Below are positions 1 through 26,454 of a DNA stretch of 64,000 nucleotides, one piece after another (position 1 is the stretch's first letter; the number at the start of each line of letters is the position of its first letter). The stretch lies in assembly GCA_038064975.1 (NCBI GenBank), contig JBBTRX010000002.1:128880-192879 (forward strand). Direction: 5' to 3'. Source of the stretch: Patescibacteria group bacterium (lineage in GTDB: Bacteria; Patescibacteriota; Minisyncoccia; UBA6257; 1-14-0-10-40-38). A program made the translations under genes and the position numbers. The notes below the pieces were generated by a model that saw only the letters and a program-made list of their open reading frames with translations, made no database searches and was not told where the DNA came from.

Positions 1-405
1 CTGATGGTATTCCATCGTCTTCCAGAGCGCCATAAGCGTATGAATATCTTTTGCCTCAAAAATAACCTTCTGCTTGCACCGCTCCGCTTCGTCCGCAAGA
101 ATATGATCCGAGTCTTCTAATAATAGTTGAGCAGCCTCACGCGTAGGAGCCGTGGAATACACCGTTCCACGGAAACCTTCTTTTACAATTTTTGGAAGCC
201 GCCCTGTATGGTCAATGTGCGCGTGCGTGGGGAAAATAGCCGCAACTCTGGTGACGTCGTATAAAAACGGACTCCAGTTTTCGTTTTCACAAAAACCGCC
301 GCCTTGTTCCAATCCGCAATCAATGAGAATCTCTGTTCCGCCAGACTCCAAAAGATAATTAGCTCCTGTAACTGATTTTGCTCCGCCGTGGAATGTTAGT
401 TTCAT
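1..405 (-). CDS. MBL-fold metallo-hydrolase (N-terminal part; gene continues beyond window start)
   Basis: Minus-strand translation from ATG at 405 gives MKLTFHGGAKSVTGANYLLESGG...PTHAHIDHTGRLPKIV, carrying the HxHxDH metallo-beta-lactamase motif. The ORF runs off the window edge. Confidence 0.6.
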   Translation of the reverse strand, partial: MKLTFHGGAKSVTGANYLLESGGTEILIDCGLEQGGGFCENENWSPFLYDVTRVAAIFPTHAHIDHTGRLPKIVKEGFRGTVYSTAPTREAAQLLLEDSDHILADEAERCKQKVIFEAKDIHTLMALWKTMEYHQ

Positions 406-685: not shown

Positions 686-1912
686 TCATTCTTCCCGCGT
701 CTCATTAAGAGCAGAAAGTACGGTCTCTTTATCACTCCACGCAGTCTTTTCTCCCTTCGGTCCGTGAATCCACCGCTCGCTCCCCTTTCCGGTAATAATT
801 ACAGTACTTCCTCGTTTCGCGATCGTGATTGCATGACGTATCGCCTCACCACGATCTACGATTTTTAATGTTTCTACTTTTTTCCCTCCTTCGGGAACGT
901 ATCCTTGGGCAATACTTTCAATAATCGCCATAGGCGGTTCGTCATACGGATCTTCGTTCGTCGCGATAATAGTTGAACAATACGCTCCAGCAATCTTGCC
1001 GAATGCAGGGCGTTTCCATACGTCTCTTCCCCCGCCTGCGGAACCTAAGACACAAATCATTTTCTTCTTTCCATCGGGATTCAGATTTTCGTACACAGCG
1101 TGGAGGGCATCCGGGGTGTGCGCATAATCAACAATAACGCGAAACGGTTTTTCTTGAATCACTTCCATTCTGCCCGGAACTCCTTTGAACGCGAGAATTG
1201 CGGGATAGATAATGCCTTGCGGAATTCCAAATACTTCCGCAACTCTTGCCGCAGCGGATGCATCGTCCGCATTAAACGGGCGAGCAAGCCATTCGTTTTC
1301 TTTTAAGGCGCGCTGAGGAAGCTGACGAAGCAATTGCTCTCCACTGAAATAATGAACTTCACCTAAACCGTGCACGGCGCGGAGAAAAGTGTCGCGTTCC
1401 CCGTCATGCTGGTTCAAAATAAAATGTTTTGCGATTTTTTTTGAACGCGTCGCGATATCACGGAAAAATCTAACCTTCGCGTCCCGATATTTTTCATATG
1501 AACCGTGCGCCTCAATATGTTCCGGATGGAGATTTAAAAATACTCCGCAATCAAAATGGATAAATCGATGCCGGTATTGCAAAGCGCCTTGAGAAGTAAC
1601 TTCTAAAATCGCGACAGTGCACCGATCACGGACTGCATCACGTAAAAACTTTTGAATCATAAAGCGCCCGGGCATCGTGTTCTCGGTCGGGTTATCGCGT
1701 ACACTCTCCCCGATTTGCATATGAAGAGATGAAAGTGCTGCCGTCTTTTTTCCTGCCGCTTCAAAAATAGCTCGTAAAATTTCTACCGCCGTTGATTTGC
1801 CCTTCGTTCCCGTGACTCCGATAACAATGAGTCTCTTTGACGGGAAACCGTAAATAATATTGCCCAAGAACGCTAAAAGAAAATGGTACGTACGCCTTAT
1901 GAAATGCAACAT
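686..1912 (-). CDS. murE: Mur ligase family protein, MurE-like (UDP-N-acetylmuramoyl-tripeptide synthetase), N-terminally short
   Basis: P-loop GVTGTKGKST and DYAHTPDAL motif typical of MurE-type Mur ligases. Length is 408 aa. Confidence 0.6.
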   Translation of the reverse strand: MLHFIRRTYHFLLAFLGNIIYGFPSKRLIVIGVTGTKGKSTAVEILRAIFEAAGKKTAALSSLHMQIGESVRDNPTENTMPGRFMIQKFLRDAVRDRCTVAILEVTSQGALQYRHRFIHFDCGVFLNLHPEHIEAHGSYEKYRDAKVRFFRDIATRSKKIAKHFILNQHDGERDTFLRAVHGLGEVHYFSGEQLLRQLPQRALKENEWLARPFNADDASAAARVAEVFGIPQGIIYPAILAFKGVPGRMEVIQEKPFRVIVDYAHTPDALHAVYENLNPDGKKKMICVLGSAGGGRDVWKRPAFGKIAGAYCSTIIATNEDPYDEPPMAIIESIAQGYVPEGGKKVETLKIVDRGEAIRHAITIAKRGSTVIITGKGSERWIHGPKGEKTAWSDKETVLSALNETREE

Positions 1913-1993
1913 GACAGTTATATTTTTTCTACTAATTTCTAAATACTAGTTTCTAGATTCTGTATCTTGTTATTGTATCACGTCAAAAAAAAG

Positions 1994-2035
1994 ACCCCGC
2001 CTCCTGTCATATACAGGGGGCGAGGTATGAACGCT
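1994..2035 (-). terminator. Rho-independent terminator for the GC-rich 124-aa gene
   Basis: On the minus strand a GC-rich hairpin (ccccgcctcctg...cagggggcgagg) is followed by a T8 run. Confidence 0.45.
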
Positions 2036-2053
2036 CCTTCCGAAGCTATGCGA

Positions 2054-2428
2054 CTACGCCACGCAGGCGACGTCCCATGTTGTCACGATCCGCTGAAGGA
2101 CCAGGTCTGCTCGACGCTTCTCGCGCGCCTTCCGTTGCTTGAGCCGAGCCTTGAGCTCTCTCTGAGTAAGGCACTTGAGACGCGTCTTGAGAGTAGATCG
2201 CAGTTCTTCTGGAACGCGACCCCAGAAGTTCGTCTCTTCCATGTTGTTTGACGAACTTTCGGCATCGGGTGCCTGGTTGTGGAAGCTCGCGAATTCTTCG
2301 CGAGATACCAAGCCATCACACACGCCATCTTCACAGCATGAGCCGTGATTTTGAAGCTCCAAGTCGAACTCGTGATCCTCCTCTGCGTCCTTTGCGCAGT
2401 AGTAAGACTCACTTTCGTTACCTTCCAA
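2054..2428 (-). CDS. hypothetical acidic/basic small protein in a GC-rich patch
   Basis: 124-aa ORF in a locally GC-rich segment (about 1.99-2.56 kb), followed by its own terminator. No recognisable motifs. Confidence 0.35.
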   Translation of the reverse strand: MEGNESESYYCAKDAEEDHEFDLELQNHGSCCEDGVCDGLVSREEFASFHNQAPDAESSSNNMEETNFWGRVPEELRSTLKTRLKCLTQRELKARLKQRKAREKRRADLVLQRIVTTWDVACVA

Positions 2429-2676
2429 AGAACTCCTCCGTTCTCCCGTGCGAGGGCACGGGACTCTCGTAGTGGTGAATGCTCACGACATCACTCGAGG
2501 CGATTCACTTCCACTATTATACCCCAATCTACTATTTTTGCAAGCCCTCCTAACTTTTAGAAAGTTGGGGAGGCAAGCCCTCCCCAAAATAAAGTATTTA
2601 CAATACTCAATTTACAATTTTCAATATTCTCATCTCTTGCTTCTTATTCATCGTTTATTGTCCATTGTTTATTATT

Positions 2677-3252
2677 TTACCGCTTAGTATTTTTTAAGGC
2701 CTCACGAAGGCGAGCTTTGAATCCTTGCACCTCTTTAGGAACTCCTTGCAGAGCTTGTTTCGCGTCCGTGCGAGAATACCCTAAACTCACGAGTGTTTCT
2801 TCCAATTCCACGTCGGATTCCATAAGCGTCACCAAGTCCTGACTCTTTCCCCAATTCATTTTGCCCTTGAGTTCAAGCACGATGCGTTCGGCTGTTTTCT
2901 TTCCGATTCCGGATGCGCGTGTAATAAGCTCCGTATGCCCGTCGTTAATCGCCGCTATTAGTTGCTCAGTATTTGCGATACTCATCACACCGAGTGCGGA
3001 TTTTGGTCCCACACCGCTTACAGAATTTAATTGTTCAAAAAATTTAAGTTCCAACTCGGTTTGGAAACCAAAAAGCTGAAGAGCGTCTTCGCGAACATGA
3101 AGATGCGTAAAGAGTTTAACTTCCGATCCGGTTTCGGGAAGATTCGCGAGTGTGTGTGCGGAAATCGCGACGCGAAAACTTATGCCGCCCGTTTCAACGA
3201 CAATAAAATTCTCTCGCTTCGCCCGCAATGTGCCTTGAATACCGTAGAGCAT
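2677..3252 (-). CDS. ruvA: Holliday junction branch migration complex subunit RuvA
   Basis: 191 aa with domain I/II HhH motifs (LNSVSGVGPKSALGVMS) and the C-terminal RuvB-interaction domain. Typical RuvA length. Confidence 0.85.
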   Translation of the reverse strand: MLYGIQGTLRAKRENFIVVETGGISFRVAISAHTLANLPETGSEVKLFTHLHVREDALQLFGFQTELELKFFEQLNSVSGVGPKSALGVMSIANTEQLIAAINDGHTELITRASGIGKKTAERIVLELKGKMNWGKSQDLVTLMESDVELEETLVSLGYSRTDAKQALQGVPKEVQGFKARLREALKNTKR

Positions 3253-3412
3253 AAAAATAATAACTGATGAAAGTATAATGTATAACGTATAAGGTATAAA
3301 GCGGAGAGAAAACTAATGTGCTTCAGCGCAAAGAAAAACCGCTCCGTGCGTTTGCCATTATTGGCATCGTGCACGGAGCGGGCTTGGGAAGAACGTTCAG
3401 GTGGTCAGGCGG

Positions 3413-3730
3413 TCAGGCGCTCGGGAGGTACGGAATGAGATCGAGCGCCTCGTCCGCGAGAGCGCCCACCTCTTCGTCGGTGAGACTCTCCAGGAAGACC
3501 GGGAGGCCTGCACGCCGGACGATCGCCTCGTTCACGGGACGCATGATCGCGACCGGCGTGAGAGACTGGATCGTATCCGCGAGAAGAACGCTGAGATTCG
3601 AGGTGATCGCGAGTGCTAGTAGCATGAGAAGCTCCTCCGAAAATAGGGTATTTGGCTTGTGAGCATAGTTGGGCCACTCACCCAACCGCTTGCTACCCTG
3701 ATTATAGCATAGTATATACCGATTTGTCAA
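3413..3730 (-). CDS. hypothetical protein (GC-rich segment; start uncertain, may begin at an internal Met)
   Basis: 105-aa ORF spanning a GC-rich stretch (3.40-3.65 kb). The opposite strand also has open frames, so coding status is uncertain. Confidence 0.25.
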   Translation of the reverse strand: MTNRYILCYNQGSKRLGEWPNYAHKPNTLFSEELLMLLALAITSNLSVLLADTIQSLTPVAIMRPVNEAIVRRAGLPVFLESLTDEEVGALADEALDLIPYLPSA

Positions 3731-3763
3731 TACCCTAAACGAGCAGTGTATTAAGGGCTTTTC

Positions 3764-3793
3764 TTGACAAAACTATCAATAAATAGCTATAGT
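3764..3793 (+). promoter_or_regulatory. sigma70-like promoter (TTGACA-18-TATAGT) upstream of paralog A
   Basis: TTGACA at 3764-3769, an 18-nt spacer, then TATAGT at 3788-3793. This lies about 55 nt upstream of the 3851 start. Confidence 0.4.
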
Positions 3794-3850
3794 GATTATC
3801 TAATCGTTCCGGATTAGCTACGTGCACCTTCAAAACCCCTATCGGAAGTA

Positions 3851-4498
3851 GTGATGCAAGACACAACCAGAGAAATCCGCAGATTAGCTCCGGATGACGA
3901 CGAAATACCTGAAGATTCACTAATGATAATGGAAAGAGTGGTTGCCGAGCTCTACGATGAAGTTGAAAGCGACGAAAGGGCATTCTCGGACCGCCTTCAT
4001 ATATACTTACTTGAACGTTTCGTACGATCGCGCGGCTCACGGAAAATATCCGCAAAAGAAGAGCTTTTCGGATATGATGATACCGCTCCAGAAAAAGAGC
4101 GGTGTATCGTATGCGCAAAGGAATTCCTGCCAAGGTTCTACACACTCATCGTAGAAGAGTCTAAGGGCATATGGATTAAGAAACCCAGCTCGGACGATCC
4201 CAGCAAATCAGTCCGCATCGGCAACTACCTTCTTTTTGAAAGAACGGTTGGACTTGATGTGGAAACCATAATTGTGGCGGCATGCGATTCTTGCATCGGA
4301 AGACTTCGGTGCAAAGATTTCAGAAACGGCATGCTCGTAGATCGACGGAAGAGGAACAAACGGCACACTATGACATATGCTGTAGCAAAGGCAAGAAAAG
4401 AAGAACGCGATGCGTTTATCCGCGCCACAAGAGAGCGCTTTGCCAGGATGGAACAAGCCGCGACGGCACGCATCCAGAGGTCGTTTACGAGAAGCTAG
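3851..4498 (+). CDS. hypothetical protein, member A of a tandem paralog pair with a four-Cys (CxxC...CxxC) putative zinc-ribbon
   Basis: Shares LFGYDDTAPxKExCxxCxxEFxPR ... IGNYLLF ... ETIIVAACDSCIxRLRxK ... KRHxxTY with the downstream ORF. Sits in a GC-richer patch. Confidence 0.55.
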   Translation: MMQDTTREIRRLAPDDDEIPEDSLMIMERVVAELYDEVESDERAFSDRLHIYLLERFVRSRGSRKISAKEELFGYDDTAPEKERCIVCAKEFLPRFYTLIVEESKGIWIKKPSSDDPSKSVRIGNYLLFERTVGLDVETIIVAACDSCIGRLRCKDFRNGMLVDRRKRNKRHTMTYAVAKARKEERDAFIRATRERFARMEQAATARIQRSFTRS

Positions 4499-4735
4499 AT
4501 AGAAAATCACAACATTGCCGTAGATTTGGACCGCACACCCCGCACCTTACGCCCATAAGGTGCGGATTTTTATAAAGAACCATATTCATATATTGATCTG
4601 TCTCCAGTAACAATCTACGACTTTCAAGCCGAAGATTGACATATATGAAAAGAGGATGTATAATAGAACTTGTTAATCGTTCTGGACTTTCTGGATCGAT
4701 TATTCGCCCCTTTTCAACTCTTTTTGGAGACAAAA

Positions 4736-5437
4736 ATGTCTGCTCATCAGAACGGCAACGCCCGAACTAATAGTGAGTCCAAACCCCACTCCAAGTCCCC
4801 TCTCAAATCCTTGGACGTCATGGAAGAAGACGTCGCTGACCTCTATGCCGAGATTGGTATGGACGGCGGTTCGTTTGCAGGACAACAGGACCTTTTCTTG
4901 CTCGGGCATTTCGTGAAATCGCGCGGCGGAAGAAAGGTGGCAATGATAGACAATCTCTTTGGCTACGACGACACCGCTCCCGCCAAAGAGCAATGCCTCA
5001 TGTGTGAACGCGAATTCCAACCCCGGCGCTTTGCAATCATCATGCACGATGGAAGCGGCAACTGGGATGTCATGACCGACCGAGACGATTCCAGCAAGCT
5101 GATCTCCAAAGGCAACTACACCCTCTTCGTCAAATGGAGTCGGGTGCATCCGTTCCCCCCCGAAGAAGTCGTGATCGTGCCCGCATGCAATCCCTGCGCC
5201 GAGAAATTGCGCACGAAGAAGCTCGAGAACGGAAAACTCGTGGAGAGGACGGACGGCAAGAAGCGGCATCTCCTGACGTATGGCGCAGCCCTGGCCGAAA
5301 AGGCAAGATTGGAGGAGAATGCTCGTTCTGAGCAGTTGCGCCTCGAACACGAGAGGGCAGAAGCAGAAGCAGAAGCAGAATCGATGCGACGCGCCCAAGG
5401 AGCTCGCATCATAAACCTCTTCAACAAGAAGAAGTAG
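4736..5437 (+). CDS. hypothetical protein, member B of the tandem paralog pair (four-Cys motif)
   Basis: Carries the same conserved blocks as 3851-4498 (LFGYDDTAPAKEQCLMCEREFQPR, KGNYTLF, VVIVPACNPCAEKLRTK, KRHLLTY). A C-terminal EAEAEAEAE tract is encoded by (gcagaa)n. A TATAAT box lies at about 4661. Confidence 0.55.
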   Translation: MSAHQNGNARTNSESKPHSKSPLKSLDVMEEDVADLYAEIGMDGGSFAGQQDLFLLGHFVKSRGGRKVAMIDNLFGYDDTAPAKEQCLMCEREFQPRRFAIIMHDGSGNWDVMTDRDDSSKLISKGNYTLFVKWSRVHPFPPEEVVIVPACNPCAEKLRTKKLENGKLVERTDGKKRHLLTYGAALAEKARLEENARSEQLRLEHERAEAEAEAESMRRAQGARIINLFNKKK

Positions 5438-5544
5438 GCTCGCCCACTCAACTACACCCCGCATTTGCCACCAGGCAGGTGCGGGGCTTTTCTTTTGTTT
5501 AAAAACATAACTAATAAAAACCGACTCATGCGTTTGTATGAGCC

Positions 5545-5640
5545 GATTACCTTATGACGCCATAAGTGAATGTTCTTTTCTCAAAACTACTCGCAGTTGC
5601 GATAGCAACGAGGACCTAGTTTTGAAAAAGAATATGAGCG
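5545..5640. repeat. Intergenic palindromic repeat family R1 copy
   Basis: ACCTTATGACGCCATAAGTGAATGTTCTTTTCTCAAAACTACTCGCAG...TAGTTTTGAAAAAGAATATGAGCG is about 90% identical to the copy at 21848-21935 and has an internal long inverted repeat. Confidence 0.55.
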
Positions 5641-5644
5641 AACG

Positions 5645-6697
5645 TTATTTTGCAAATGGATTCTTCGCGCCGTGCACTTCAAAGTGTAAGTGACAACTCG
5701 TCGGCCCGTTAGTATTTCCAGTATTTCCAACTTCAGCGATGAGCTGGCCTTTTTCAATATAATCGCCGATAGAAGCAATATTACTTTCCGTGTGCGCGTA
5801 CCGTGTGCGCGTACCGTTTGGATGTTCTATATCAACATATCCTCCATATCCCCCATTCCAATTATTAGGACTTCCCGTTTTAACAACCAATCCTTCAGCC
5901 GCGGCATAGATAGCAGTTCCACACGCGTTCGCGATATCAACCGCATTATTGGCATGGAGCTGTCCCCAATTCCATCCCGACGCTGGGAGCGTAAAGTATC
6001 CTTTCAAATCAGGAAGGTGCGCAGTCAAACTTGAACGTTCCTGCAAGCGACCTCCTGGAATAATGAGCTTCTCCCCTTCCATGATTGTTTCTGTCGCGAG
6101 CCGCGGATTTGCTTTTACAATCTCCTGCGGAGCAATGGAATAGAAGATCGCGATAGATTCAACACTTTCTCCAGCGGCAATTTCATGCAAAATGCCGGAT
6201 ACCGGAAGAATTGTGATCTCATCGCCCGGACGAATGACGTTTTTGCGCAACGTCGGATTTGCCCAGAGTAGCGTATTTAATGAAACACCATAACTTGCTC
6301 CAATATTGGAAAGCGTCTCTCCCTTCTGGACTTTATGGAGAATAATACCGTCGCGACGCGCGAAACGAGAATCCAAGGGATTTGCATGATGTACGAGTGC
6401 GGCACCGTCAAAAGCTCCGTATTCTTCGTCTTCCATAGTAAATACGTCAGCATGAACAGTATCAATCTCCGAAACCGCCTCCAGAAAGCCAAGATCATTA
6501 CTATTTTCCGAAGTTTCTTGAAGTGGTCCCCCGAAAACTGATGCTTGTGCGGAAAAAACTGCTTGCGACTCGCTTTGGAAAGCAAAGCCCAAGGTGATAA
6601 GGATAGTCCCAAAAAGGAAAACAACCGCTACTAGGGTTGTGGGATTAGCACGTTTTAGATTTTTGAGTATAGTACTAATACCCCAAAAGCATACCAT
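5645..6697 (-). CDS. LysM domain / M23 family peptidoglycan metalloendopeptidase
   Basis: N-terminal TM/signal, two LysM-like segments (KVQKGETLSNIGASYGVSLNTLLWANP; AAGESVESIAIFY), and a C-terminal M23 domain (HxxxD region GYGGYVDIEHPNGTRTRYAHTES...CHLHFEV). Start set at the internal Met to avoid overlapping pcrA. Confidence 0.8.
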   Translation of the reverse strand: MVCFWGISTILKNLKRANPTTLVAVVFLFGTILITLGFAFQSESQAVFSAQASVFGGPLQETSENSNDLGFLEAVSEIDTVHADVFTMEDEEYGAFDGAALVHHANPLDSRFARRDGIILHKVQKGETLSNIGASYGVSLNTLLWANPTLRKNVIRPGDEITILPVSGILHEIAAGESVESIAIFYSIAPQEIVKANPRLATETIMEGEKLIIPGGRLQERSSLTAHLPDLKGYFTLPASGWNWGQLHANNAVDIANACGTAIYAAAEGLVVKTGSPNNWNGGYGGYVDIEHPNGTRTRYAHTESNIASIGDYIEKGQLIAEVGNTGNTNGPTSCHLHFEVHGAKNPFAK

Positions 6698-6706
6698 GAA
6701 CCCCAA

Positions 6707-8506
6707 ATGAACCTCAACCCCAACCAAGAGAAGGCAGTAAATCACGGAGAAGGCCCACTTCTTATCGTAGCTGGCGCCGGATCCGGAAAAACAAAGACAT
6801 TAACCGCCCGTGTACTCCGACTCATTGAACGCGGCGTCCCACCGGAGGCAATTATAGCGATAACCTTTACTAACAAGGCAGCGAAAGAAATGCGCGCCCG
6901 ACTTTTCGCCCATCCAGACTTCCCTAAGAAGGTTTTTACCGCCCTTGGTCCTGCTCCATTTGTAGGAACATTTCATTCGCTAGGCGCTCGCATCCTCCGC
7001 GAGGAAGGAAAAGCGCTCGGGAGATCTGGATCATTTTCTATCTTTGATTCCGATGACGCCTTGCGCGCGCTTCGCCACACACTCAAAGATATGAATCTGG
7101 ATGATGAGCAGTATCCACCCGCACGCATCATTCGCAGTATTGAAGCCGTCAAAAATAAACTTTTAGACCCGCAGGAATATTTCGATCCAAGAAAATATCG
7201 AGTATTCGCCGCATATGAAAACTATATTGCAAAAAATAATGCATTTGATTTTGGCGACCTTATCCAAAAAGTCGTAACACTTTTTGATACAAATCCGGAA
7301 ATCAAAAAGTGCTATAACGAACGTTACACGCATATTTTAGTTGACGAGTATCAGGACGTGAATCTTGCGCAGTACCGATTAGTAAAATTACTCGCAGGAG
7401 CGCGAGGCAACGTGAGCGTCGTGGGCGACGATGCGCAAGCAATCTACGGATGGCGCCACGCCGACTTTACGAACTTCCTTAATTTTGAAAAAGATTGGCC
7501 GACCGCTTCCGTGGTGACGCTGGAAGAAAACTATCGATCAACGGAAACCATTCTCACCGCAGCAAACGCGGTTATTAAAAATAATGCATTCCAAAAGCCT
7601 AAAAATTTGTGGACGAGCAAAGCCGGCGGGCCAATGATTGTTGTTGCATCCGCCCCAAATGCCGAAGAAGAATCGTACTGGATTACCGAACAGATTATTG
7701 AAACACTCCGTGCTATCCCGCGGGCAGAGCGAACACAGGACGGGATAGCTATCCTCTACCGCACGAACGCACAGTCCAGATCAATAGAATCTGCGCTCGT
7801 TTCCGCAGGTATTCCCTACCGCATCTTCGGCGGAGTAAAATTCTATGAACGTAAGGAAATTAAAGATATTATCGCGGGGCTCCGCATAGCAGCGAACCCG
7901 AACGATCTCGTAAGCCGCGAGCGCATTGAAAAAACATTTACCAAAAAAATAGGTGCAAGCGTCATTGAAGCACTCTCCGGACAATCCCCTCGTTTGAATA
8001 TTTTGGAACTTATCACGCTTTTCCTTTCGCGCGGAAAATATTTTGAACTGCTGGAAAAAAAATTTCCCAACCTTGAAGAGCGTAAAGAAAACGTCAATGA
8101 GCTTCTCGCTGGAGCGGCAGATTTTACTGAACTTCCAGCGTTTCTTGAGCACGCATCCCTCATGCAATCGGGAGACGCGGAAAATGAAAAAGCCGCCGGA
8201 GGTGCGAGCGTAAACCTGATGACCATTCATCTTGCGAAGGGATTGGAATTTGATACGGTCTTTATCGCCGGCGCAAACGAAGGGCTCATCCCCCATCAAA
8301 TGTCCTTCAAGACACGCGAAGAAATGGAAGAAGAGCGGCGGCTTATGTATGTCGCAATGACGCGTGCAAGAAAAAATCTCCGCATCTCGTTTTTCCATAT
8401 TCCGTCCAGATTCCTCTACGAAATACCGGCAGAACTTACGGAGTATAGAGATTTAGGAGGGAGATCTGGAGGACTCCCCGAAGAAGATATTGTTTATCTA
8501 GATTAA
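6707..8506 (+). CDS. pcrA: ATP-dependent DNA helicase PcrA/UvrD family
   Basis: N-terminus MNLNPNQEKAV...LLIVAGAGSGKTKTL (helicase motif I), VDEYQD (motif II), and UvrD-family C-terminal motifs. Confidence 0.85.
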   Translation: MNLNPNQEKAVNHGEGPLLIVAGAGSGKTKTLTARVLRLIERGVPPEAIIAITFTNKAAKEMRARLFAHPDFPKKVFTALGPAPFVGTFHSLGARILREEGKALGRSGSFSIFDSDDALRALRHTLKDMNLDDEQYPPARIIRSIEAVKNKLLDPQEYFDPRKYRVFAAYENYIAKNNAFDFGDLIQKVVTLFDTNPEIKKCYNERYTHILVDEYQDVNLAQYRLVKLLAGARGNVSVVGDDAQAIYGWRHADFTNFLNFEKDWPTASVVTLEENYRSTETILTAANAVIKNNAFQKPKNLWTSKAGGPMIVVASAPNAEEESYWITEQIIETLRAIPRAERTQDGIAILYRTNAQSRSIESALVSAGIPYRIFGGVKFYERKEIKDIIAGLRIAANPNDLVSRERIEKTFTKKIGASVIEALSGQSPRLNILELITLFLSRGKYFELLEKKFPNLEERKENVNELLAGAADFTELPAFLEHASLMQSGDAENEKAAGGASVNLMTIHLAKGLEFDTVFIAGANEGLIPHQMSFKTREEMEEERRLMYVAMTRARKNLRISFFHIPSRFLYEIPAELTEYRDLGGRSGGLPEEDIVYLD

Positions 8507-8694: not shown

Positions 8695-9531
8695 TCATCC
8701 GCATCCGCAAATAAAAGTTGTTTGATCAAAAATCGCAGGACGCCCTAAGCATATCAAGTTTAAGCATCCAATAGGAACACCGACAACAGAGCAAGCGCAA
8801 CACGGCGCAACAAGATTAATACCAAACGGAATCGTTGGATCTCCAGACATAAAACAGGTCTGAGCATTCGCCTCGCTCACAAACGCTCCCGCGAGCGCTG
8901 AGCCAAACTCAGTGAAAATCCCAAGAGGATTTTTCAGCTCAAAATTGGATGGCACGCTTGCCTGCCCTCGTAGAATCACGGCTTCTTGAAGATGAAGCGC
9001 TCGCACGATTCCTATTCCCTGCAAGAATCCTGGGCGATCGTTTTCCGTGACAATCCCCTTTTCCCGCAAAAATTCAAACGTTTTTCCACCCCAAAACCCG
9101 AGAACTTTATCTTCATTATCAAAAACTTTCTTCTCCGCGACGGTAAGTACCCCCTCTTCTACCATAATATTCTGCAATGTATTCAAGGCAGAAAGATATT
9201 CCAGCGGATGCTGGATAGAAAAAATCTCAGCGTCAGTGGCATTCGTTGCGATAAGAGGACCAAGAAGCGCGTTGGGGTCGATCTTTGGGATTTTCGTCGT
9301 GTATTTATTTTCAGGAACAGTTTTTTGCGGATCGTTTACTTCTGTATTGCGATTACCGAAAAAAAGAGAGAATTCTTTTCCTTGTGGAATGTATGAATAT
9401 ATTTCTTTTTTTGTTTCTTCCACGCGAACAACGGGTGTCTCGCTTTGCTTTTCATTATTCCAAAGCAACACCACGAAAACCAATCCCAAAGTAAGAACTG
9501 TAGTAAAAATGGTTGCGAGAGTTATCTTCAT
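8695..9531 (-). CDS. hypothetical membrane-anchored/secreted protein with Cys/Gly-rich C-terminus
   Basis: N-terminal hydrophobic segment (MKITLATIFTTVLTLGLVFVVLL). The C-terminal 45 aa contain 9 Cys (CFMSGDP...APCCACSVVGVPIGCLNLICLGRP...FICGCG). Confidence 0.5.
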   Translation of the reverse strand: MKITLATIFTTVLTLGLVFVVLLWNNEKQSETPVVRVEETKKEIYSYIPQGKEFSLFFGNRNTEVNDPQKTVPENKYTTKIPKIDPNALLGPLIATNATDAEIFSIQHPLEYLSALNTLQNIMVEEGVLTVAEKKVFDNEDKVLGFWGGKTFEFLREKGIVTENDRPGFLQGIGIVRALHLQEAVILRGQASVPSNFELKNPLGIFTEFGSALAGAFVSEANAQTCFMSGDPTIPFGINLVAPCCACSVVGVPIGCLNLICLGRPAIFDQTTFICGCG

Positions 9532-9630
9532 AGCACAATAGACAATAAACAATAGACAATGAATAATGAGGGATAAATAACCCCTTTCGCATCATTCGCA
9601 TTATACATTTCGCATCGGCATCATACAAAC

Positions 9631-10467: not shown

Positions 10468-11214
10468 ATGGCAAAAAAAATCTTTTCACTATTTCTTATT
10501 GTGGGCGCAGGTATGGGCGCCGTTGTTCTTGTCGGTAGTGCTTCTCTTTCAGCGAAAGTCGCCTCTCCCAAGACTGCAATTCTTACTGAAGCCATTCCAA
10601 ATACGCCCGGGGCTACCGCCTCCACCCGCGCACGCAATGAAACCTTAAAGCTACTAGAGGGTACTCTTACAAAAATCAGAGAAGAGGCAAACAAATCTCC
10701 CGATCAGCAAATCAGCGGCGCTATTCCTAATATTAATCCTGAAGAAATCGCTGAAAGCATTTTAAGCGAAGGGCAAGCAGCGTTTGATCCTGAAACGTTT
10801 AGAGTTTCCGTGTCTCTAGAGTCGCTCATTATCACACCGAGCAAAGACAAGACGGCAATAGAATCCTATTTCAAAGGAGTACAAGCAATTCTCCAGAGCG
10901 CGAGCGCCATTACGCAGGAATTTACAAAAACAGATCCTTCCCCGAAAGCCTTCGGTGAAGTTGCAAAAACGGTCCACGACACTGCCACGAATCTTTACAC
11001 GCTTCCCGTCCCCGCTCCCGCGGCACATCTTCACGCGCGCCAAATCGGACTCATGCAAACACAGGCGAATATTTTTAGTGCCCTTGCGAAAGCCGACCAG
11101 GATCCTGTACTCGCGCTTTTTGCGCTTCAAACCCTGGAAGCATTACAGCCTGAATTTGATGCCGTAGGGAAAGATTTTTCCAATCTCTTAAGCCAATACG
11201 GCATTACCTATTAA
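10468..11214 (+). CDS. hypothetical secreted protein (first gene of T4SS-like cluster)
   Basis: N-terminal signal/TM (LFLIVGAGMGAVVLVGSASLSA). No catalytic motifs. Confidence 0.45.
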   Translation: MAKKIFSLFLIVGAGMGAVVLVGSASLSAKVASPKTAILTEAIPNTPGATASTRARNETLKLLEGTLTKIREEANKSPDQQISGAIPNINPEEIAESILSEGQAAFDPETFRVSVSLESLIITPSKDKTAIESYFKGVQAILQSASAITQEFTKTDPSPKAFGEVAKTVHDTATNLYTLPVPAPAAHLHARQIGLMQTQANIFSALAKADQDPVLALFALQTLEALQPEFDAVGKDFSNLLSQYGITY

Positions 11215-12717
11215 ATGAACCGAAGCATAGCCATAACGCTTGCGCTTGTAACCATACTCACGGTTTTTGGTCAGCCGCTTCTTTTCCCTCGCACTGTTCA
11301 AAAAGCTGAGGCAGCCGTTCCTGTTTGGGATATTACCGGTGCTCCAGTCCAAAGCTTCACGCAATCACTTCTTGAGTGGGCCTGGCGCTTTGCTCGAGAG
11401 ACGCTCCGCAGAAGAATTTTGGACATGATGGTTGATCAAATCATTCAGTGGATTAACGGGGGTGGAAAACCCCAATTTGTAAGTGATTGGGGAGGGTTTT
11501 TGGACGATGCCGCGAATATTGCGATTGGAGATTTTGCAGAAGAGATCGGTGCCGGATGGCTGTGCGATCCATTTAATTTTCAAATCCAAATAGCCCTATT
11601 GCCTGTTCCGCGATTCTCCCAGCAAGTTACCTGTACCCTAGATCAAATCGTTGGCAATATTGATAATTTTTATAACGACTTCAGAAATGGAAACTGGATT
11701 GCGTATACGGGATCACTAGAGCCGCAAAACAATTACTTTGGAGCAACGATCCTTGCAATATCAGAACGTGACAGAAGGATTTCACAAGCTCAGCAATCTG
11801 CACAAAACGAGGCGCTTGCCGGAGGAGGATTCTTAAGCTCAAAATCATGCAATGAAAGTGGCGGGAGCGGACCGGATTTGGACGGCGACGGAACCCCGGG
11901 AGACATTTCATCAACATGTGTCGTTACGACACCAGGAAGCACTGTGGGAGGGATTGTGAGTAAAGCCATCGGATCCGATATTGATTATCTCGTAAACGCC
12001 GAGGAGATTGAGGCATATGTAGGCGCAATCGCAAACGCTATTGTGAACCGACTCATCGTATCCGGAGTAAACGGCTTGAAGGGAGTTTCCACTCCGAACG
12101 CTCCCGCCGGAGGAACCATAGGAGGAGGATCCGGCCCATGCGCAGGACTTGTGGGAGTTCAGCTCACCGCATGCCAAGATTACGTTACTACTTCAAATAA
12201 TAATCTTGATTTTGCAAAATCAAGCACAATCAGCAATATCAATCAGGTCCTCTCCCCACTGCAGGGAGTAACAACTGCGCATGCATCCTCGCTTCAAGCA
12301 CTCAATCAATACGTCGCTGATCTGAATACCTTCCTCTCACAATTCAATGCACTTCCCAGCAATCCATTTATGGGAAAAGCATGCACGAATTTTGATACGT
12401 ATATCGCGAATATCAACGCCGAACTTGGATATGCGACAAGCACGATTGCGATCGTAACAAGTAAACAGAGCGCAAACCAAGCATGGATGGGGCAACTCAA
12501 TACTTCGGTACAAGGATTAAACGCACTCGCTCCGGACGATTGGGCAGGATTTAGCGCTATCGTTGCTCCGCTTCAAAACTCCGGTCTTCTAGATCAAAAT
12601 GCCGCAATTACCGCAGAGAATAATGCCGCTACCGAACTGCAAACCATTCAGACACATATTCAACAGGCAAAGACCGCAATTCAAAACAATTACACAAGTT
12701 GTCAGAATGGTAACTAG
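11215..12717 (+). CDS. hypothetical secreted protein, 500 aa
   Basis: Signal peptide (ITLALVTILTVFGQ). Long ORF immediately following the previous gene. Confidence 0.45.
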   Translation: MNRSIAITLALVTILTVFGQPLLFPRTVQKAEAAVPVWDITGAPVQSFTQSLLEWAWRFARETLRRRILDMMVDQIIQWINGGGKPQFVSDWGGFLDDAANIAIGDFAEEIGAGWLCDPFNFQIQIALLPVPRFSQQVTCTLDQIVGNIDNFYNDFRNGNWIAYTGSLEPQNNYFGATILAISERDRRISQAQQSAQNEALAGGGFLSSKSCNESGGSGPDLDGDGTPGDISSTCVVTTPGSTVGGIVSKAIGSDIDYLVNAEEIEAYVGAIANAIVNRLIVSGVNGLKGVSTPNAPAGGTIGGGSGPCAGLVGVQLTACQDYVTTSNNNLDFAKSSTISNINQVLSPLQGVTTAHASSLQALNQYVADLNTFLSQFNALPSNPFMGKACTNFDTYIANINAELGYATSTIAIVTSKQSANQAWMGQLNTSVQGLNALAPDDWAGFSAIVAPLQNSGLLDQNAAITAENNAATELQTIQTHIQQAKTAIQNNYTSCQNGN

Positions 12718-12720
12718 ACT

Positions 12721-14916
12721 ATGTTCGTAAAAATTGGAATAAGAAAAAAACACTGGATAACAATCTTTCTCTTCATGATCCTTGCCGGATCATTGCTAAG
12801 CGCATCTCCTTTTGCCCTCGCACAACAGCAAGGTCCTCCACCTGCAACTCAAGATCCGATAGGTCCGCCAGCTCCATCGCCTACGGACAATGAATCTAAG
12901 AACAATCCTACATGCAGTCTTTGGAGCGGCTTTTCTCTGGCTGATTGTATTTCCTTGGGCTTGAGTACTCTTTTCTATGTTATCTATTCCGCAATTGGCT
13001 CGCTTATAAACTTCCTCGCAGTTGTTATTGAATTCATTATTGATCTTAGTAAAGATATCGTTGGAAGTTCTCTCGTTCGCATTGGATTCTCTATCACGCT
13101 TGGAATCGCTAATCTCGGATTTGTTCTTGCGATTATTGTTATCGCATTTGCTACAATCCTCCGCATAGAAAAATACGCACTAAAACAAACGCTTTGGAAG
13201 CTTATCGTCGCTGCAGTGCTTATCAATTTCAGTCTCGGACTTGCCGGACTCATTATTGATTTTACAAACGTCTTCTCATATTTCTTTATAGAAGAAATCC
13301 AAAAGGCAGGAGATCTCGGCGGACAACTTGCGAATGCAATGCAGATACAGAATCTTGTAAAAGTTGACGGTGCTAAAGGACTCGCGGAAGCGGGAGGGCA
13401 GAGTCTTATCAACTTTGGTGGGGCACTTTTGGGATTCATCATATCTCTTCTTATCGCAGTTCTTTTTTCCGCAATCATTGTGATTGTATTTGGAGCACTC
13501 GCTTTTATGCTTGTTGTCCGTTACGTTTACATCGTTTTCCTTCTCATACTTATGCCTATCGCATGGCTCTGTTGGGTTGTCCCCGACCTTTCAAAGCATT
13601 GGCGTAATTGGTGGGACACCTTTATCCAATGGACGTTTTTCTTGCCTGCTATGACGTTCTTTATGTATCTCGGCATCGTAGCCATTGCGGGAACCGCAAC
13701 ACAGCCTGGCCTTAATAAAACGGTTTCCGATAGCGTAGCTTTGGATAGTGTTTCCGCTAAAGCACTAGATGGATTTGTAATACAAACTGGCGGCGCTGAA
13801 CAATTTCTCCAAATCTTAATAGCAATCGGTATCTTTGTCGGAGGTTTAATAGCCGCCCAAAAAATGAGTATCGCCGGAGCTGCGAGCGCAGTAGGTTTCG
13901 TGAAGAGTGCAAAAGATAAAGCCATAGGAGCTCTGGGATACACCGCTCGCTTACCATACCGTGCCGCAGGAGCAGCTAAAAGAGCGGCGATTGGCGAAGA
14001 TGTTACGAGGAGAGCCGCAACTCACCTCACCAGATCAGAACCATTTAAAAAATGGACGGAAAATCGCCAAAAAAGTAACAGTTTCCTTGTTCGAAGCGTT
14101 GGGAATGTCGCCGCAAAATTAGGAACTCTCCAAGGGGAACAACTAGCGTCTCAAGCGAGCGAGCGAGTCAAGAATATTCCAAAAAGCCAGCTCGCATTTC
14201 AAATACGAGATTTAAAAGGAGCTGATTATGCCCAAGGATTGGCGCGCGCCGTTAAAGAAGGGGTTGCGGATAAAATCCCTAACCTTGGCGAAATCATCGG
14301 GAATGAAAAAACAAAGGAAATTTTTAAAAGCTTTGGGATGGAGAAGGATTATGGCAATCTTGAAAATGCATTTGGCGCAGATACTGCCATGGTTCAGGCC
14401 GCACGGAAAGATGATGGAGCAGCGTTAACAAAAGCCTCTCTAGAATTCCATAATAAAAAGAGTCTAGAAGACTATAAAAAATTCCCATCGGAATGGTTAA
14501 AGGAATTTGATCCGAAGAAGCGCTTTGCCGGCATGGACCAATCGCTGTTTGAAAAATTAAGTAGCGCAAATTTAAGAACTATCGGAAATACAAATCCAGG
14601 CGCTTTAGGAAAAATGATGCCAAAATTTTCAGGTAAAGATTTTGCTGAATTTCAAAAGAAGCTTTTCCAAGAATTTAGAAATGACTTTGATATGATTATC
14701 GAACACGAGGGGAAAAAATTTGCTCGCGATTCGGTTTTTGATGATTTACAATCCTTAGATCAAAAAATTGCCTTTGAAGCGCGCAGTATTCTCACAAGTG
14801 GTTTGGAAAAGATAAATAAAAATCTCCATCGATCGCTTACAAAAAATATGGGGGATCGCATAACTGGTGCCACAGCTGAAACTCCGCCGCCAGGCACACC
14901 TCCACAAACCCCATAA
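12721..14916 (+). CDS. polytopic membrane protein, putative VirB6/TrbL-like T4SS component with large C-terminal soluble domain
   Basis: At least 6 hydrophobic helices in the N-terminal 400 aa, then a charged C-terminal domain ending in PPPGTPPQTP. It sits beside the VirB4-like ATPase. Confidence 0.45.
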   Translation: MFVKIGIRKKHWITIFLFMILAGSLLSASPFALAQQQGPPPATQDPIGPPAPSPTDNESKNNPTCSLWSGFSLADCISLGLSTLFYVIYSAIGSLINFLAVVIEFIIDLSKDIVGSSLVRIGFSITLGIANLGFVLAIIVIAFATILRIEKYALKQTLWKLIVAAVLINFSLGLAGLIIDFTNVFSYFFIEEIQKAGDLGGQLANAMQIQNLVKVDGAKGLAEAGGQSLINFGGALLGFIISLLIAVLFSAIIVIVFGALAFMLVVRYVYIVFLLILMPIAWLCWVVPDLSKHWRNWWDTFIQWTFFLPAMTFFMYLGIVAIAGTATQPGLNKTVSDSVALDSVSAKALDGFVIQTGGAEQFLQILIAIGIFVGGLIAAQKMSIAGAASAVGFVKSAKDKAIGALGYTARLPYRAAGAAKRAAIGEDVTRRAATHLTRSEPFKKWTENRQKSNSFLVRSVGNVAAKLGTLQGEQLASQASERVKNIPKSQLAFQIRDLKGADYAQGLARAVKEGVADKIPNLGEIIGNEKTKEIFKSFGMEKDYGNLENAFGADTAMVQAARKDDGAALTKASLEFHNKKSLEDYKKFPSEWLKEFDPKKRFAGMDQSLFEKLSSANLRTIGNTNPGALGKMMPKFSGKDFAEFQKKLFQEFRNDFDMIIEHEGKKFARDSVFDDLQSLDQKIAFEARSILTSGLEKINKNLHRSLTKNMGDRITGATAETPPPGTPPQTP

Positions 14917-14923
14917 ACCATTT

Positions 14924-15607
14924 ATGATAACTATCTCTCAAAAACAAGCATTAGATAGATGGGATACTCTTACCGAAAAGCTTCGGGAGGCTTTGTTTTC
15001 TTCTGAATATGCGGATATTGTTTGGTCCATCGCTGAAAAAAGAAAAATGGAAGAAAACCAAATACACATCCTTGCGACAGCCGCAGGAGATGTTGTAATG
15101 GGCTTTATCCCCTCCAGCCCGTCGGAATTTGCGAAAGAACTTATGACTCGTCTCTCCATTAAAGAGAGCGATGCGTTGGAGATGGCACGTGAGCTTGATG
15201 TAAAAATATTCGCCAATCTAAAACAAGATATAGATAAAGTCTTCTCTGTACCCAAAGACCACAAAGAACCTCCTCCATTTAATCCTCAAATGAGACCAGC
15301 GGAGCCTGTCCCCGTTATGAACGATATCGTTGCAGGGAATGGAAATGGTGAAACAAAACAAAATCACGTCGCACCAAGCCAAGAAGAAACGCATATAGAT
15401 GAGCCGTTTATTCTCCATCGCGAAGATGCTGGAGTAGCACGTGAAATTCCCGCAGAAGAACCCTTTGTACGCTTTGAGGCACAAAGATTTTCCGGCACCC
15501 AACCAACCGCAAAACCAGCAACCGCTCGCATCGAAGGATTAAACAACGAACCCAAGAAAGAGCGCGTAGTACATTATAGTAGTGAGAGAACACCGCTAGA
15601 AGACTAG
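14924..15607 (+). CDS. hypothetical protein
   Basis: ORF of about 228 aa from the internal Met (MITISQKQALDRW). No recognisable motifs. Confidence 0.4.
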   Translation: MITISQKQALDRWDTLTEKLREALFSSEYADIVWSIAEKRKMEENQIHILATAAGDVVMGFIPSSPSEFAKELMTRLSIKESDALEMARELDVKIFANLKQDIDKVFSVPKDHKEPPPFNPQMRPAEPVPVMNDIVAGNGNGETKQNHVAPSQEETHIDEPFILHREDAGVAREIPAEEPFVRFEAQRFSGTQPTAKPATARIEGLNNEPKKERVVHYSSERTPLED

Positions 15608-25338: not shown

Positions 25339-26454
25339 ATGAAATTAATTATATTAAGAAATAACATAAGAGAAGGGCTCTCTATAATAGAACGGGCTGT
25401 GGGGGACGATGCGAATCTTCCAATACTTAAGAATGTTTTAATTAAAGCCGAGTCGGGAAATAAACTTTCTCTTTCCGCGACAAATCTTGAAATAGGGATT
25501 GATGCGTGGATAACGGGAAAAATTATTGAGGAGGGAAACATAACCGTTCCATTCGCAACACTTCATACTGTTATTGGGAATAGCGATAGCGATAGAATTA
25601 ATATGGAAACGAAAGGCGATAATTTAATGATTAAGACGGATAATTATGACGCGACAATACAAGGCCTTCCTCCTGAAGATTTTCCAATTATTCCAAAAAT
25701 AGAAAATAAAGAACTTTCTATAGAAATCAAAGCTTTTACGTTTAAAGATGCATTACAAGAAATTATTAGTGCGGCACAGATTTCTGAAATACGCCCGGAA
25801 ATAAGTGGTATTTTATTTGATTTCCAACTTACGGCTATTAAACTCGTTGCAACTGATAGCTTCCGCCTTGCTGAGAAAACGTTGTTTAATAATCAATTTC
25901 AAACCAATATTAAGCATGGGTATAAAATTATTATCCCTCTTAAAACAGTTCATGAAGTTATTCGATCATTTAAAGATGATGATATTTTAACGATTCAAAT
26001 TGATCCTCATCAGATTCTTTTTAAGACGCAAGCGCACCAAATTATTTCACGATTAATTAACGGAACATATCCGGATTACGAACAAATTATTCCCAAAGTT
26101 ATCGAAAATGAGATTGTAGTAAATCGTGAAAAACTTTTAAATGCTGTAAAGCTTGTTGGGAATTTTTCCGGAAAATCAAACGATATCCAGATGCGAGTAA
26201 AAAATGGAATAAGCACATTAGAAGTTTTTTCTATCCATCAGCATCTCGGTGAAAATTCCTATCTTATTCCTATTAAAGCAAAAAAAGAAATTAATGAATT
26301 AAGTTTTAATTGGAAATATTTATTTGACGGACTTAAAGCTTTAAAAGGAGAAATTATTATCTTAGGTATTAATGGGGATGCAAAGCCGGCGATATTAAAA
26401 CCACAAGAAGATGCTTCGTATTTCTATCTCGCAATGCCGATTAAATCTACTTAA
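25339..26454 (+). CDS. dnaN: DNA polymerase III beta subunit (sliding clamp)
   Basis: 371 aa immediately after dnaA, with conserved clamp N-terminus (MKLIILRNNIREGLSIIERAV). Confidence 0.85.
   Translation: MKLIILRNNIREGLSIIERAVGDDANLPILKNVLIKAESGNKLSLSATNLEIGIDAWITGKIIEEGNITVPFATLHTVIGNSDSDRINMETKGDNLMIKTDNYDATIQGLPPEDFPIIPKIENKELSIEIKAFTFKDALQEIISAAQISEIRPEISGILFDFQLTAIKLVATDSFRLAEKTLFNNQFQTNIKHGYKIIIPLKTVHEVIRSFKDDDILTIQIDPHQILFKTQAHQIISRLINGTYPDYEQIIPKVIENEIVVNREKLLNAVKLVGNFSGKSNDIQMRVKNGISTLEVFSIHQHLGENSYLIPIKAKKEINELSFNWKYLFDGLKALKGEIIILGINGDAKPAILKPQEDASYFYLAMPIKST

Follow-up and report, generated by a model that had tools for sequence, protein, structure and literature searches.

Eukaryotic CPSF73 works together with the zinc-finger protein CPSF30, and the archaeal β-CASP nuclease FttA/aCPSF1 with the zinc-ribbon Spt4-Spt5. 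Small proteins encoded beside RNases are also known as inhibitors or type II antitoxins (barnase-barstar, MazEF), and mRNAs that lack ACA are poor substrates under MazF. Here we describe two adjacent genes, P1 and P2, from a Patescibacteria group bacterium (assembly GCA_038064975.1, contig JBBTRX010000002.1, positions 128,880 to 192,879 of the forward strand; this stretch of 64,000 nucleotides is called the window throughout). They encode members of an undescribed and very rare protein family that is confined to Patescibacteria; in the relatives the family gene lies directly upstream of a gene for a CPSF73-like β-CASP RNase and strongly prefers codons ending in G or C. Of this descriptive part, i.e., the paralogy, the limits of the family, synteny, expression signals, RNase adjacency and codon bias, we are highly confident. 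The overall explanation that appears best to us, and that we hold with about as much confidence as doubt, is an old local duplication of a resident transcription unit for a zinc- and nucleic-acid-binding partner of the RNase.

An initial annotation, made from the sequence alone, had proposed that P1 and P2 are duplicated same-strand paralogs. Pairwise alignment of the proteins bears this out, with 43% identity over 173 amino acids (aa) at an expectation value (E) of 2e-47, and all blocks quoted at that time are present in both (LFGYDDTAP-KE-C-x2-C-x2-EF-PR, GNY-LF, IV-AC-x2-C-x3-LR-K and KRH-x2-TY). The codon differs at 44 of the 83 residues that are identical between the two proteins, and their similarity is therefore kept at the protein level. 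Each gene is monocistronic in the window, and the complete set of elements, comprising promoters, leaders, coding sequences (CDSs), putative metal ligands and terminators, is as follows:

3764-3793 (+), P1 promoter, TTGACA-18-TATAGT, 11 of 12 matches to the consensus
3800-3853 (+), P1 5' leader with a predicted 5'-proximal hairpin at 3800-3817 (CUAAUC/GAUUAG) and the TAATCGTTCYGGA block
3854-4498 (+), P1 CDS, open reading frame (ORF) of 214 aa from ATG 3854 (215 aa from GTG 3851)
codons 4103-4105, 4112-4114, 4283-4285 and 4292-4294, P1 putative metal ligands C85, C88, C145 and C148 (numbered from 3851)
4540-4573 (+), P1 intrinsic terminator, 10-bp stem (hairpin 4540-4565) and U tract
4636-4664 (+), P2 promoter, perfect TTGACA-17-TATAAT, absent from the initial annotation
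4671-4735 (+), P2 5' leader with a 5'-proximal hairpin at 4674-4702 and a GGAGA ribosome-binding site; minimum free energy -13.4 kcal/mol, z -1.5
4736-5437 (+), P2 CDS, ORF of 233 aa
codons 4994-4996, 5003-5005, 5186-5188 and 5195-5197, P2 putative metal ligands C87, C90, C151 and C154
5457-5496 (+), P2 intrinsic terminator, 13-bp stem (hairpin 5457-5486) and U tract

The consensus-like promoter that had been noticed in front of the first paralog is thus joined by a perfect one in front of the second. Perfect TTGACA-N16-19-TATAAT sites occur four times in the 64 kb, compared with 0.07 expected by chance, and two of the four are found at the P1/P2 locus. The ribosome-binding sites, GGAAG in the case of P1, are located at the correct distance from both start codons, and the TAATCGTTCYGGA block is common to the two leaders. 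The P1 leader does not fold better than shuffled sequences (z -0.05), and its hairpin is a prediction only. The database copy of P1, P0002, begins at the ATG. The NCBI entry for P2 is shorter, with 205 aa counted from M29, and the similarity to P1 reaches upstream of this residue. The two terminators are homologous (repeat D3, 71% identity), which indicates that the duplication copied a whole unit of about 900 bp. P1 and P2 are more similar to each other than either is to any ortholog, and in combination with the homologous terminators this identifies the pair as a local duplication of one resident transcription unit.

An antisense ORF of 254 aa (4700-5464, -) covers all of P2 in the exact codon-complement frame (its counterpart in the identical contig L093 is 10847-11416, -), and it is open because P2 contains no TTA, CTA or TCA codons. 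On identical ENA and Logan assemblies, gene callers annotated part of this antisense ORF (189 aa) and not P2, which is consequently absent from most protein databases. This illustrates a practical pitfall and helps to account for the poor representation of the family in such databases. Hainich groundwater (well H51, 0.1-µm fraction; ENA ERZ1292627) and Logan run ERR3858113 both yielded contigs that match the window at 100% identity. As every further assembly with P1 is likewise identical to the window (100%), no strain variants were available for calculating the ratio of nonsynonymous to synonymous polymorphism (pN/pS).

When P2 alone was used as a query, only the protein itself was retrieved (hypothetical protein AAB407_01150, encoded on a 320-kb contig of a Patescibacteria metagenome-assembled genome). 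A profile built from P1 and P2 retrieved six proteins from 1.84 billion representatives, namely P1, P2 and four distant relatives (E 6e-9 to 9e-5), and three matches were obtained in 5.8 billion clusters. A DNA pattern of the conserved motif had no match in GTDB species representatives and viral contigs and two matches in JGI metagenomes, which are duplicates of P0003 and P0006. More remote members were reached through the RNase gene located downstream of the family gene in the relatives, termed β-CASP-b here (a second paralog is termed β-CASP-a). An alignment of β-CASP-b was used to fetch 80 loci from GTDB species representatives. At locus L007 the RNase is 35% identical and a 329-aa ORF is situated directly upstream. 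Known family genes and its own antisense frames aside, this is the sole large ORF (at least 120 aa) in 86 loci that stands out by its G+C content (GC) and its GC at third codon positions (GC3, 0.83). It is linked to the family by hhalign (E=2.8e-4 over EFQP...GNFL...PYCKNC), and the full alignment adds LTFYTAAGA, corresponding to LPTMTxGAA, and ARVFG. A search with the extended alignment returned 28 proteins at E of 0.1 or better, i.e., P2 and 27 proteins that are new and carry no annotation (297-337 aa, E 1e-53 to 7e-4). A few of these remote homologs come with a source name, which is Paceibacterota or Azambacteria, and the other family matches with a source name are likewise from Patescibacteria. 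Full-text searches of the literature, limited in extent, retrieved no description of the family, of its pairing with an RNase or of its codon anomaly. Orphan proteins are common in Patescibacteria and an unannotated family alone would be modest news.

The statement of the initial annotation that no known family is recognisable held in all searches that we performed. Neither P1 nor P2 has a significant match in Pfam, PHROGs, NCBIfam or PADLOC, including the models for toxins, antitoxins and defence proteins in these libraries; no DNA-binding domain was detected in either protein, profile searches of PDB sequences found no match for the family, and Foldseek comparisons of the P2 model with PDB and BFVD and of the P1 core model with PDB yielded nothing better than E=0.1. 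Some candidates were considered and set aside. The best library match, Phage_Gp23 (E=0.089, coiled-coil tail), was treated as a chance match. An OB (oligonucleotide/oligosaccharide-binding) fold, suggested for P2 by weak Foldseek matches, did not recur with P1, for which weak matches to ribosomal proteins appeared instead, and no fold was assigned. Identities resembling DksA/TraR, ZAS anti-sigma factors or RbpA were dropped because the motif spacing differs and no Pfam model matched.

The family signature consists of LFGYD-TAP, C-x2-C-x3-F-x-P-R, GN[YF]L, [PA][FY]C-x2-C, LPTMT/KRH-x2-TY and a basic C-terminal helix, and P1 and P2 carry all of these blocks. The six close members have retained all four cysteines (C87, C90, C151 and C154 in P2 are invariant) as well as the motifs FxFxDR, L[FY]G[YWF]DxTAP, FRPR, GNYL, PFCNxCI and LPTMT. 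Over 32 aligned sequences, one cysteine of the first knuckle, the glycine of GN[YF]L, the second CxxC and an arginine are invariant. An AlphaFold2 model of P2, based on a six-sequence alignment, has a mean predicted local distance difference test score (pLDDT) of 72.7, reaching about 80-90 in the core. From a disordered N-terminus the chain passes through two or three helices into a beta-rich core and ends in a C-terminal helix of 50 residues, which in the family protein is long and partly basic. C87 and C90 are placed in the turn of a beta-hairpin; about 60 residues further on, C151 and C154 mark the start of a helix. From the initial proposal of a four-Cys zinc ribbon, the conserved four-Cys putative metal site thus stands, while a match to a zinc-finger family or fold was not found. 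The family appears to possess a conserved Cys4 (or Cys3His) putative metal site, and we infer that it binds zinc.

The genetic environment of the family genes was compared on 11 contigs from about eight distinct genomes (P0002-P0007, P0016, P0019 and P0030 as well as L005 and L006, which were found by the DNA pattern). Four of the loci represent a long subfamily (L007, L087, L089 and L091). The two genes that frame the pair in the window and the order of encoded proteins at the different loci are:

2677-3252 (-), ruvA, with RuvA_N, HHH_5 and RuvA_C domains
5645-6745 (-), LysM/M23 peptidase gene
Window: MurE-like ligase (TIGR01085), RuvA, P1, P2, LysM/M23, UvrD, RsmA
L001: Mur ligase, 146-aa ORF, RuvA, 76-aa ORF (-), P0004 (+), β-CASP, LysM/M23 (-), UvrD
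L002: UvrB, 88-aa ORF (-), P0005, then the N-terminus of β-CASP
L003 and L006: Mur ligase, ORF, RuvA, P0006, β-CASP, M23
L004/L005: P0003, β-CASP, LysM/M23, UvrD, RsmA
Long subfamily: NUDIX (-), family gene, β-CASP, FtsH

L001, L003/L006 and L004/L005 contain a single ortholog in the same RuvA/LysM-M23-UvrD-RsmA slot. Since this slot is shared with distant relatives, the four-Cys gene is an ancestral, vertically inherited resident. Flanking orthologs are 40-57% identical between the window and its relatives compared with 28-32% for the four-Cys proteins, suggesting that the latter evolve somewhat faster than their neighbours.

These findings bear on the idea put forward in the initial annotation that P1 and P2 were acquired horizontally, which would make them a recent island from a GC-rich donor. 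The compositional observation from which it started is correct. The segment 3300-5460 has a GC of 50.6% compared with 42.2% for the window, and only 0.08% of all 2160-bp windows reach 50.6%, though P1 (48.1%) is close to the flanks (46-47%). The excess is uneven and amounts to 56.6% in 3300-3730 and 54.8% in P2. GC3 is 0.66 for P2 and 0.49 for P1 versus 0.40-0.45 (about 0.42) for the flanking genes, and the composition of P1 is thus barely above that of its neighbours; in the whole 64 kb, 300-bp intervals with a GC of at least 0.54 occur only at 2001-2400, 3301-3700 and 4901-5500. A horizontal origin would also be in keeping with the codon usage of the gene copies in the relatives, which by our own estimate resembles that of a genome with roughly 65% GC, and with a family that has no known function. 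However, distantly related genomes carry orthologs at the same locus, searches of 15 billion proteins revealed no donor lineage, all contexts examined are syntenic chromosomal ones of the Patescibacteria type, and viral contigs contain no copy of the family. No integrase, transposase, tRNA or flanking direct repeats were found near P1 and P2, the nearest tRNA being located at 39.4 kb. Furthermore, the promoters and the leader sequence upstream are of the host type and AT-rich, the excess of GC sets in with the start codon and hardly extends beyond the CDS, and the codon bias is weaker in the window than in the relatives, which is the opposite of what a fresh import would produce. It is therefore very improbable that the pair is a recent horizontal island.

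What appears in the window as a GC-rich patch is far more pronounced in the relatives. High GC3 (0.83-0.93) is found in all 11 relative contigs and for proteins down to about 25% identity, while GC3 of the neighbours is 0.33-0.59 overall (0.33-0.52 for neighbouring genes and 0.49-0.59 for the adjacent RNase, with M23 reaching up to 0.58). The values for the individual family genes and the codon shares in family genes versus neighbours are:

GC3, four-Cys genes: L001 0.90, L002 0.87, L003 0.93, L004 0.89
GC3, long subfamily: L007 0.83, L087 0.83, L089 0.88, L091 0.90
AAG (Lys): 0.96 versus 0.21
CAG (Gln): 0.99 versus 0.40
GAG (Glu): 0.86 versus 0.28
TTC (Phe): 0.95 versus 0.23
ATC (Ile): 0.85 versus 0.23

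The codon switch touches every amino acid. Ribosomal protein L19 and protein S1, encoded in the same loci, have a GC3 of 0.39-0.43, and ordinary translational selection is therefore not the cause of the bias. Along the DNA, GC is 0.24-0.43 in the promoter region (-180 to -91) versus 0.56-0.76 inside the CDS and decreases again downstream of the terminator; the final 90 leader nucleotides of the long subfamily already have 0.52-0.57 GC. The step at the start codon and the drop after the terminator mean that the anomaly tracks transcript and CDS and not a DNA block. P2 lacks ACA, CCA and GTA in addition to the three codons mentioned above, and its GAC share is 0.79. The codon usage of P1 is almost at background level. 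With respect to GC3, both P1 and P2 fall short of the family value of about 0.8 or more in a genome with 42-48% GC, and the window represents a weakened, decaying form of a family-wide preference for G/C-ending codons. As recent transfer does not explain the conserved GC3, a persistent gene-specific force on synonymous sites is implied.

In genomes that lean towards AT, islands of high GC frequently turn out to be RNA genes. It could therefore be argued that the GC-rich stretches are structured non-coding RNA genes with incidental ORFs, since every unit comes with a strong promoter and a separate terminator. In order to assess the structure of the mRNAs, folding energies were compared with those of synonymous-codon permutations that preserve the protein and the codon usage, with codon-junction dinucleotides left free to vary. 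CDSs of the long subfamily fold far more stably than the shuffled versions (z = -7.0 for L087 and -6.7 for L089) with the excess spread along the CDS, and local 120-nucleotide windows are mostly negative in all four cases (L087 6001-6969, L089 4344-5240, L091 6001-6894, L007 2781-3770). This excess of predicted structure would also suit RNA genes. The four-Cys CDSs do not show a comparable excess (P0004 -1.0, P0006 -0.6, P2 -0.45, P1 -2.1). Selection for base-paired mRNA is plausible in the long subfamily and is not evident from the genes in the window. A non-coding nature of the stretches is hardly credible in view of conservation at the protein level with synonymous change, invariant cysteines and glycine, a GC3>GC1>GC2 coding pattern and correctly spaced ribosome-binding sites. 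In addition, Rfam offers no match, also with thresholds relaxed: in the window the gathering score is reached by tRNAs only, and the region 1900-5700 contains no credible match at E of 5 or better.

In all nine relative contigs that reach far enough, the family gene is followed directly downstream by a β-CASP gene (L001, L002 with the N-terminus only, L003, L004, L005, L007, L087/L088 and L089/L090), and this adjacency holds in three different upstream contexts, i.e., RuvA, UvrB and NUDIX. The encoded protein comprises 425-450 aa with MBL (metallo-β-lactamase), β-CASP and RMMBL domains, with CPSF73 (E=3e-44), Integrator subunit 11 and the Thermus RNase TTHA0252 (E=2e-34) as its top matches. 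RNases encoded beside one subfamily share 32-35% identity with those beside the other, compared with 24-28% to β-CASP-a, and family gene and RNase gene appear to have been inherited together as a pair. The window is the only genome examined that does not have the RNase gene adjacent to the family gene. It does start inside a gene for a β-CASP-a ortholog at 1-372 (-), which is 58% identical to the L001 copy (3110-4435). This protein scores 396 bits with the NCBIfam model for Cas14 (type VII CRISPR), well below the cut-off of 800 bits, and no CRISPR context was seen.

Transcription signals were located at two of the relative loci. The promoter of the four-Cys gene is TG-extended in both, with 12 of 12 matches in L001 (9862-9889) and 11 of 12 in L003 (285-313); in either case the gene is monocistronic and ends in a terminator with a stem of 15-16 bp. 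The terminator hairpin of the four-Cys gene (L001 10774-10818, L003 1192-1235) contains the -35 element (TTGACT) of the RNase promoter. This conserved overlap could couple the expression of the two genes.

Taken together, we favor the following scenario. One complete unit, consisting of a sigma-70 promoter, a leader with a 5' hairpin, the CDS and an intrinsic terminator, was duplicated in tandem, locally and long ago, giving rise to P1 and P2. The protein would be strongly expressed, as judged from promoters of the consensus type and strong terminators that the window shares with the relatives. It would bind zinc and, given the Cys site and the basic C-terminal helix and tail, nucleic acid, probably RNA, and may serve as a partner or regulator of the CPSF73/TTHA0252-type RNase, because the adjacency is conserved across three upstream contexts. 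In the genome represented by the window, the RNase gene is gone from the locus and the partner gene has a duplicate, and the remaining GC-richness would be the decaying remnant of the preference for G/C-ending codons. The functional core of this scenario, a zinc- and nucleic-acid-binding partner or regulator of the adjacent RNase, is a tentative suggestion. The persistence of the gene pair through changes in context is a lead to the targeting or control of a minimal RNase in ultra-small bacteria, and the window is an informative exception, with the RNase gene absent from the locus, the partner gene duplicated and the bias decaying.

Several points weigh against this explanation. There is no β-CASP-b homolog in the 64 kb, where P2 occupies its position, and since P1 and P2 are intact at such a locus their function cannot strictly depend on an RNase gene next door. 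A terminator separates the four-Cys gene from the RNase gene in L001 and L003, where each is transcribed as a unit of its own, and their adjacency could reflect inherited synteny rather than a functional link. In sequence and fold searches homology points to neither zinc nor RNA binding, the P1 core model is poor (pLDDT 65.5), and neither of the two models has a significant Foldseek match. Finally, C-x4-H replaces the first CxxC in the long subfamily, and a strict Cys4 metal site is therefore not a family-wide feature.

The same observations can be arranged differently. The protein may be a DNA-binding regulator or a nucleoid-type protein that is unrelated to the RNase; the adjacency would then be mere gene order, and the bias would stem from a recombination or gene-conversion hot spot or from condition-specific translation. 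A Cys4 site combined with a basic C-terminal helix is compatible with this view, as are the neighbouring DNA-repair genes (for RuvA, UvrD and UvrB), the conserved divergent promoter region upstream of P1 (see below) and the slightly raised GC3 of the β-CASP and M23 genes, which is reminiscent of the shoulders of a hot spot. In contrast, the family gene keeps its RNase neighbour whether RuvA, UvrB or NUDIX lies upstream, gene conversion at the DNA level does not predict a GC step at the start codon behind AT-rich promoters, and, as mentioned above, a DNA-binding domain was not detected. We regard this as a minority possibility.

Somewhat less probable is that the protein acts as an antitoxin-like inhibitor of the neighbouring RNase, with an mRNA that resists this RNase owing to its G/C-ending codons and its propensity for structure; loss of the RNase would then have led to decay of the bias and to duplication. 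Such a role would fit the upstream adjacency, which is invariant wherever it can be tested and combined with separate strong promoters, the restriction of the GC excess to the transcript, the stable folds of the long-subfamily CDSs (z about -7) and the fact that the sole genome without an adjacent RNase is also the sole one with a weak bias. This correlation originates from a single genome, however, and the link between weak bias and missing RNase is a single observation that we take as a lead only. Moreover, the four-Cys CDSs are without excess structure (z -0.5 to -1.0), PADLOC did not return a match, the genes are not co-transcribed as in classical toxin-antitoxin pairs, and the RNase is vertically inherited and housekeeping-like. 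Similarly unlikely, and bolder, is a two-gene module with the β-CASP RNase in which selection at the level of the transcript keeps the partner mRNA about 90% G/C-ending (and base-paired in the long subfamily), for example to escape or tune cleavage. If true, the window would constitute a natural case of RNase loss with relaxed constraint, and the module as a whole would exemplify gene-specific, long-term selection on synonymous sites that overrides genome-wide AT pressure in a reduced bacterial genome.

Upstream of P1, further GC-rich elements with expression signals of their own are present:

3701-3730 (-), divergent promoter of the small ORF at 3413-3625, perfect TG-extended TTGACA-18-TATAAT, absent from the initial annotation
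3413-3625 (-), small GC-rich ORF, 70 aa from ATG 3625, GGAGGAG ribosome-binding site, linked to P1 by position only
2543-2516 (-), promoter of a GC-rich unit between ruvA and the MurE-like ligase gene
2054-2428 (-), ORF of this unit
about 2030-1990 (-), strong terminator of this unit

The block of the divergent promoter, TATAGCATA...TTTGTCAATA, is conserved in L001 and L002. GC at the three codon positions of the 3413-3625 frame is 0.62/0.41/0.69 (GC1/GC2/GC3), which is a coding-like pattern, and small GC-rich ORFs occupy the equivalent position in L001 (76 aa) and L002 (88 aa); the P0006 genome (L006) is devoid of such an ORF. The ORF at 2054-2428 (124 aa, GC 0.55, GC3 0.62) has an acidic, Cys-rich N-terminus and a basic C-terminal helix, and GC-rich ORFs with a GC3 of 0.61-0.78 are found at its position in L001 (8148-8588) and L006 (1577-1864). 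Neither of the two window ORFs gave anything significant in the family libraries, and comparisons with their positional equivalents by BLASTP, Smith-Waterman against shuffled sequences, hhalign and blastn were all non-significant. These small GC-rich ORFs are unexplained companions and not members of the family.

A few other observations concern the remainder of the window and the relative contigs. Genes at 25339-26454, 46093-50392 and 52227-53405 have a low GC of 0.33-0.36 and a GC3 of 0.25-0.35 compared with the window mean of 0.42 and could be compositional islands of opposite sign. The regions 10468-15607 and 8695-9552 contain ORFs of 248, 500, 731, 246 and 285 aa without a Pfam match at E of 0.001 or better. 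The 731-aa ORF is annotated as TrbL_3 in L093, and a 683-aa ORF in the corresponding position of L004 matches TrbL_3 weakly. The ends of the L002 Logan contig (1-31 and 2229-2259) consist of the same approximately 30 nucleotides in inverted orientation (MRPTGILDPR on opposite strands), most likely a k-mer overlap of the assembly graph.

Returning to the described systems, P1 and P2 share with compositional genomic islands a GC and codon usage atypical of the host chromosome. Unlike in such islands, synteny of the gene extends to distant relatives, only the transcribed region is anomalous, mobility genes and att-like repeats are absent, and the anomaly persists across deep divergence rather than ameliorating. 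With Cys4 zinc-ribbon and treble-clef proteins the family has in common two CxxC knuckles, the first of which lies, in the AlphaFold2 model, where a beta-hairpin turns and the second where a helix starts, an arrangement typical of treble-clef fingers; the proteins are also small and cytoplasmic and have a basic tail. They differ from Cys4 zinc fingers in that a beta-rich insert sets the knuckles about 60 residues apart, that Pfam, PDB sequences and Foldseek provide no match, and that the first knuckle is C-x4-H in the remote subfamily.

Barnase-barstar and MazEF, as representatives of RNase-inhibitor and type II toxin-antitoxin pairs, resemble our loci in that the gene for a small protein is found immediately upstream of an RNase gene, and MazEF does so also through the idea that the composition of an mRNA can make it a poor RNase substrate. 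In contrast to these pairs, the genes studied here are not co-transcribed, PADLOC and Pfam have no match, and the RNase is conserved and vertically inherited and not a mobile toxin. As regards the accessory subunits of β-CASP nucleases, the family has no similarity in sequence or fold to CPSF30 or Spt4, the pairing is established by genomic adjacency alone, and the copies in the window are without an adjacent nuclease gene. The likeness that we see to CPSF73-CPSF30 and to FttA/aCPSF1 with Spt4-Spt5 would be one of functional analogy: in each case, a β-CASP nuclease, which at our loci is the 425-450-aa RNase without an RNA-binding domain of its own, is paired with a small Cys-rich protein.

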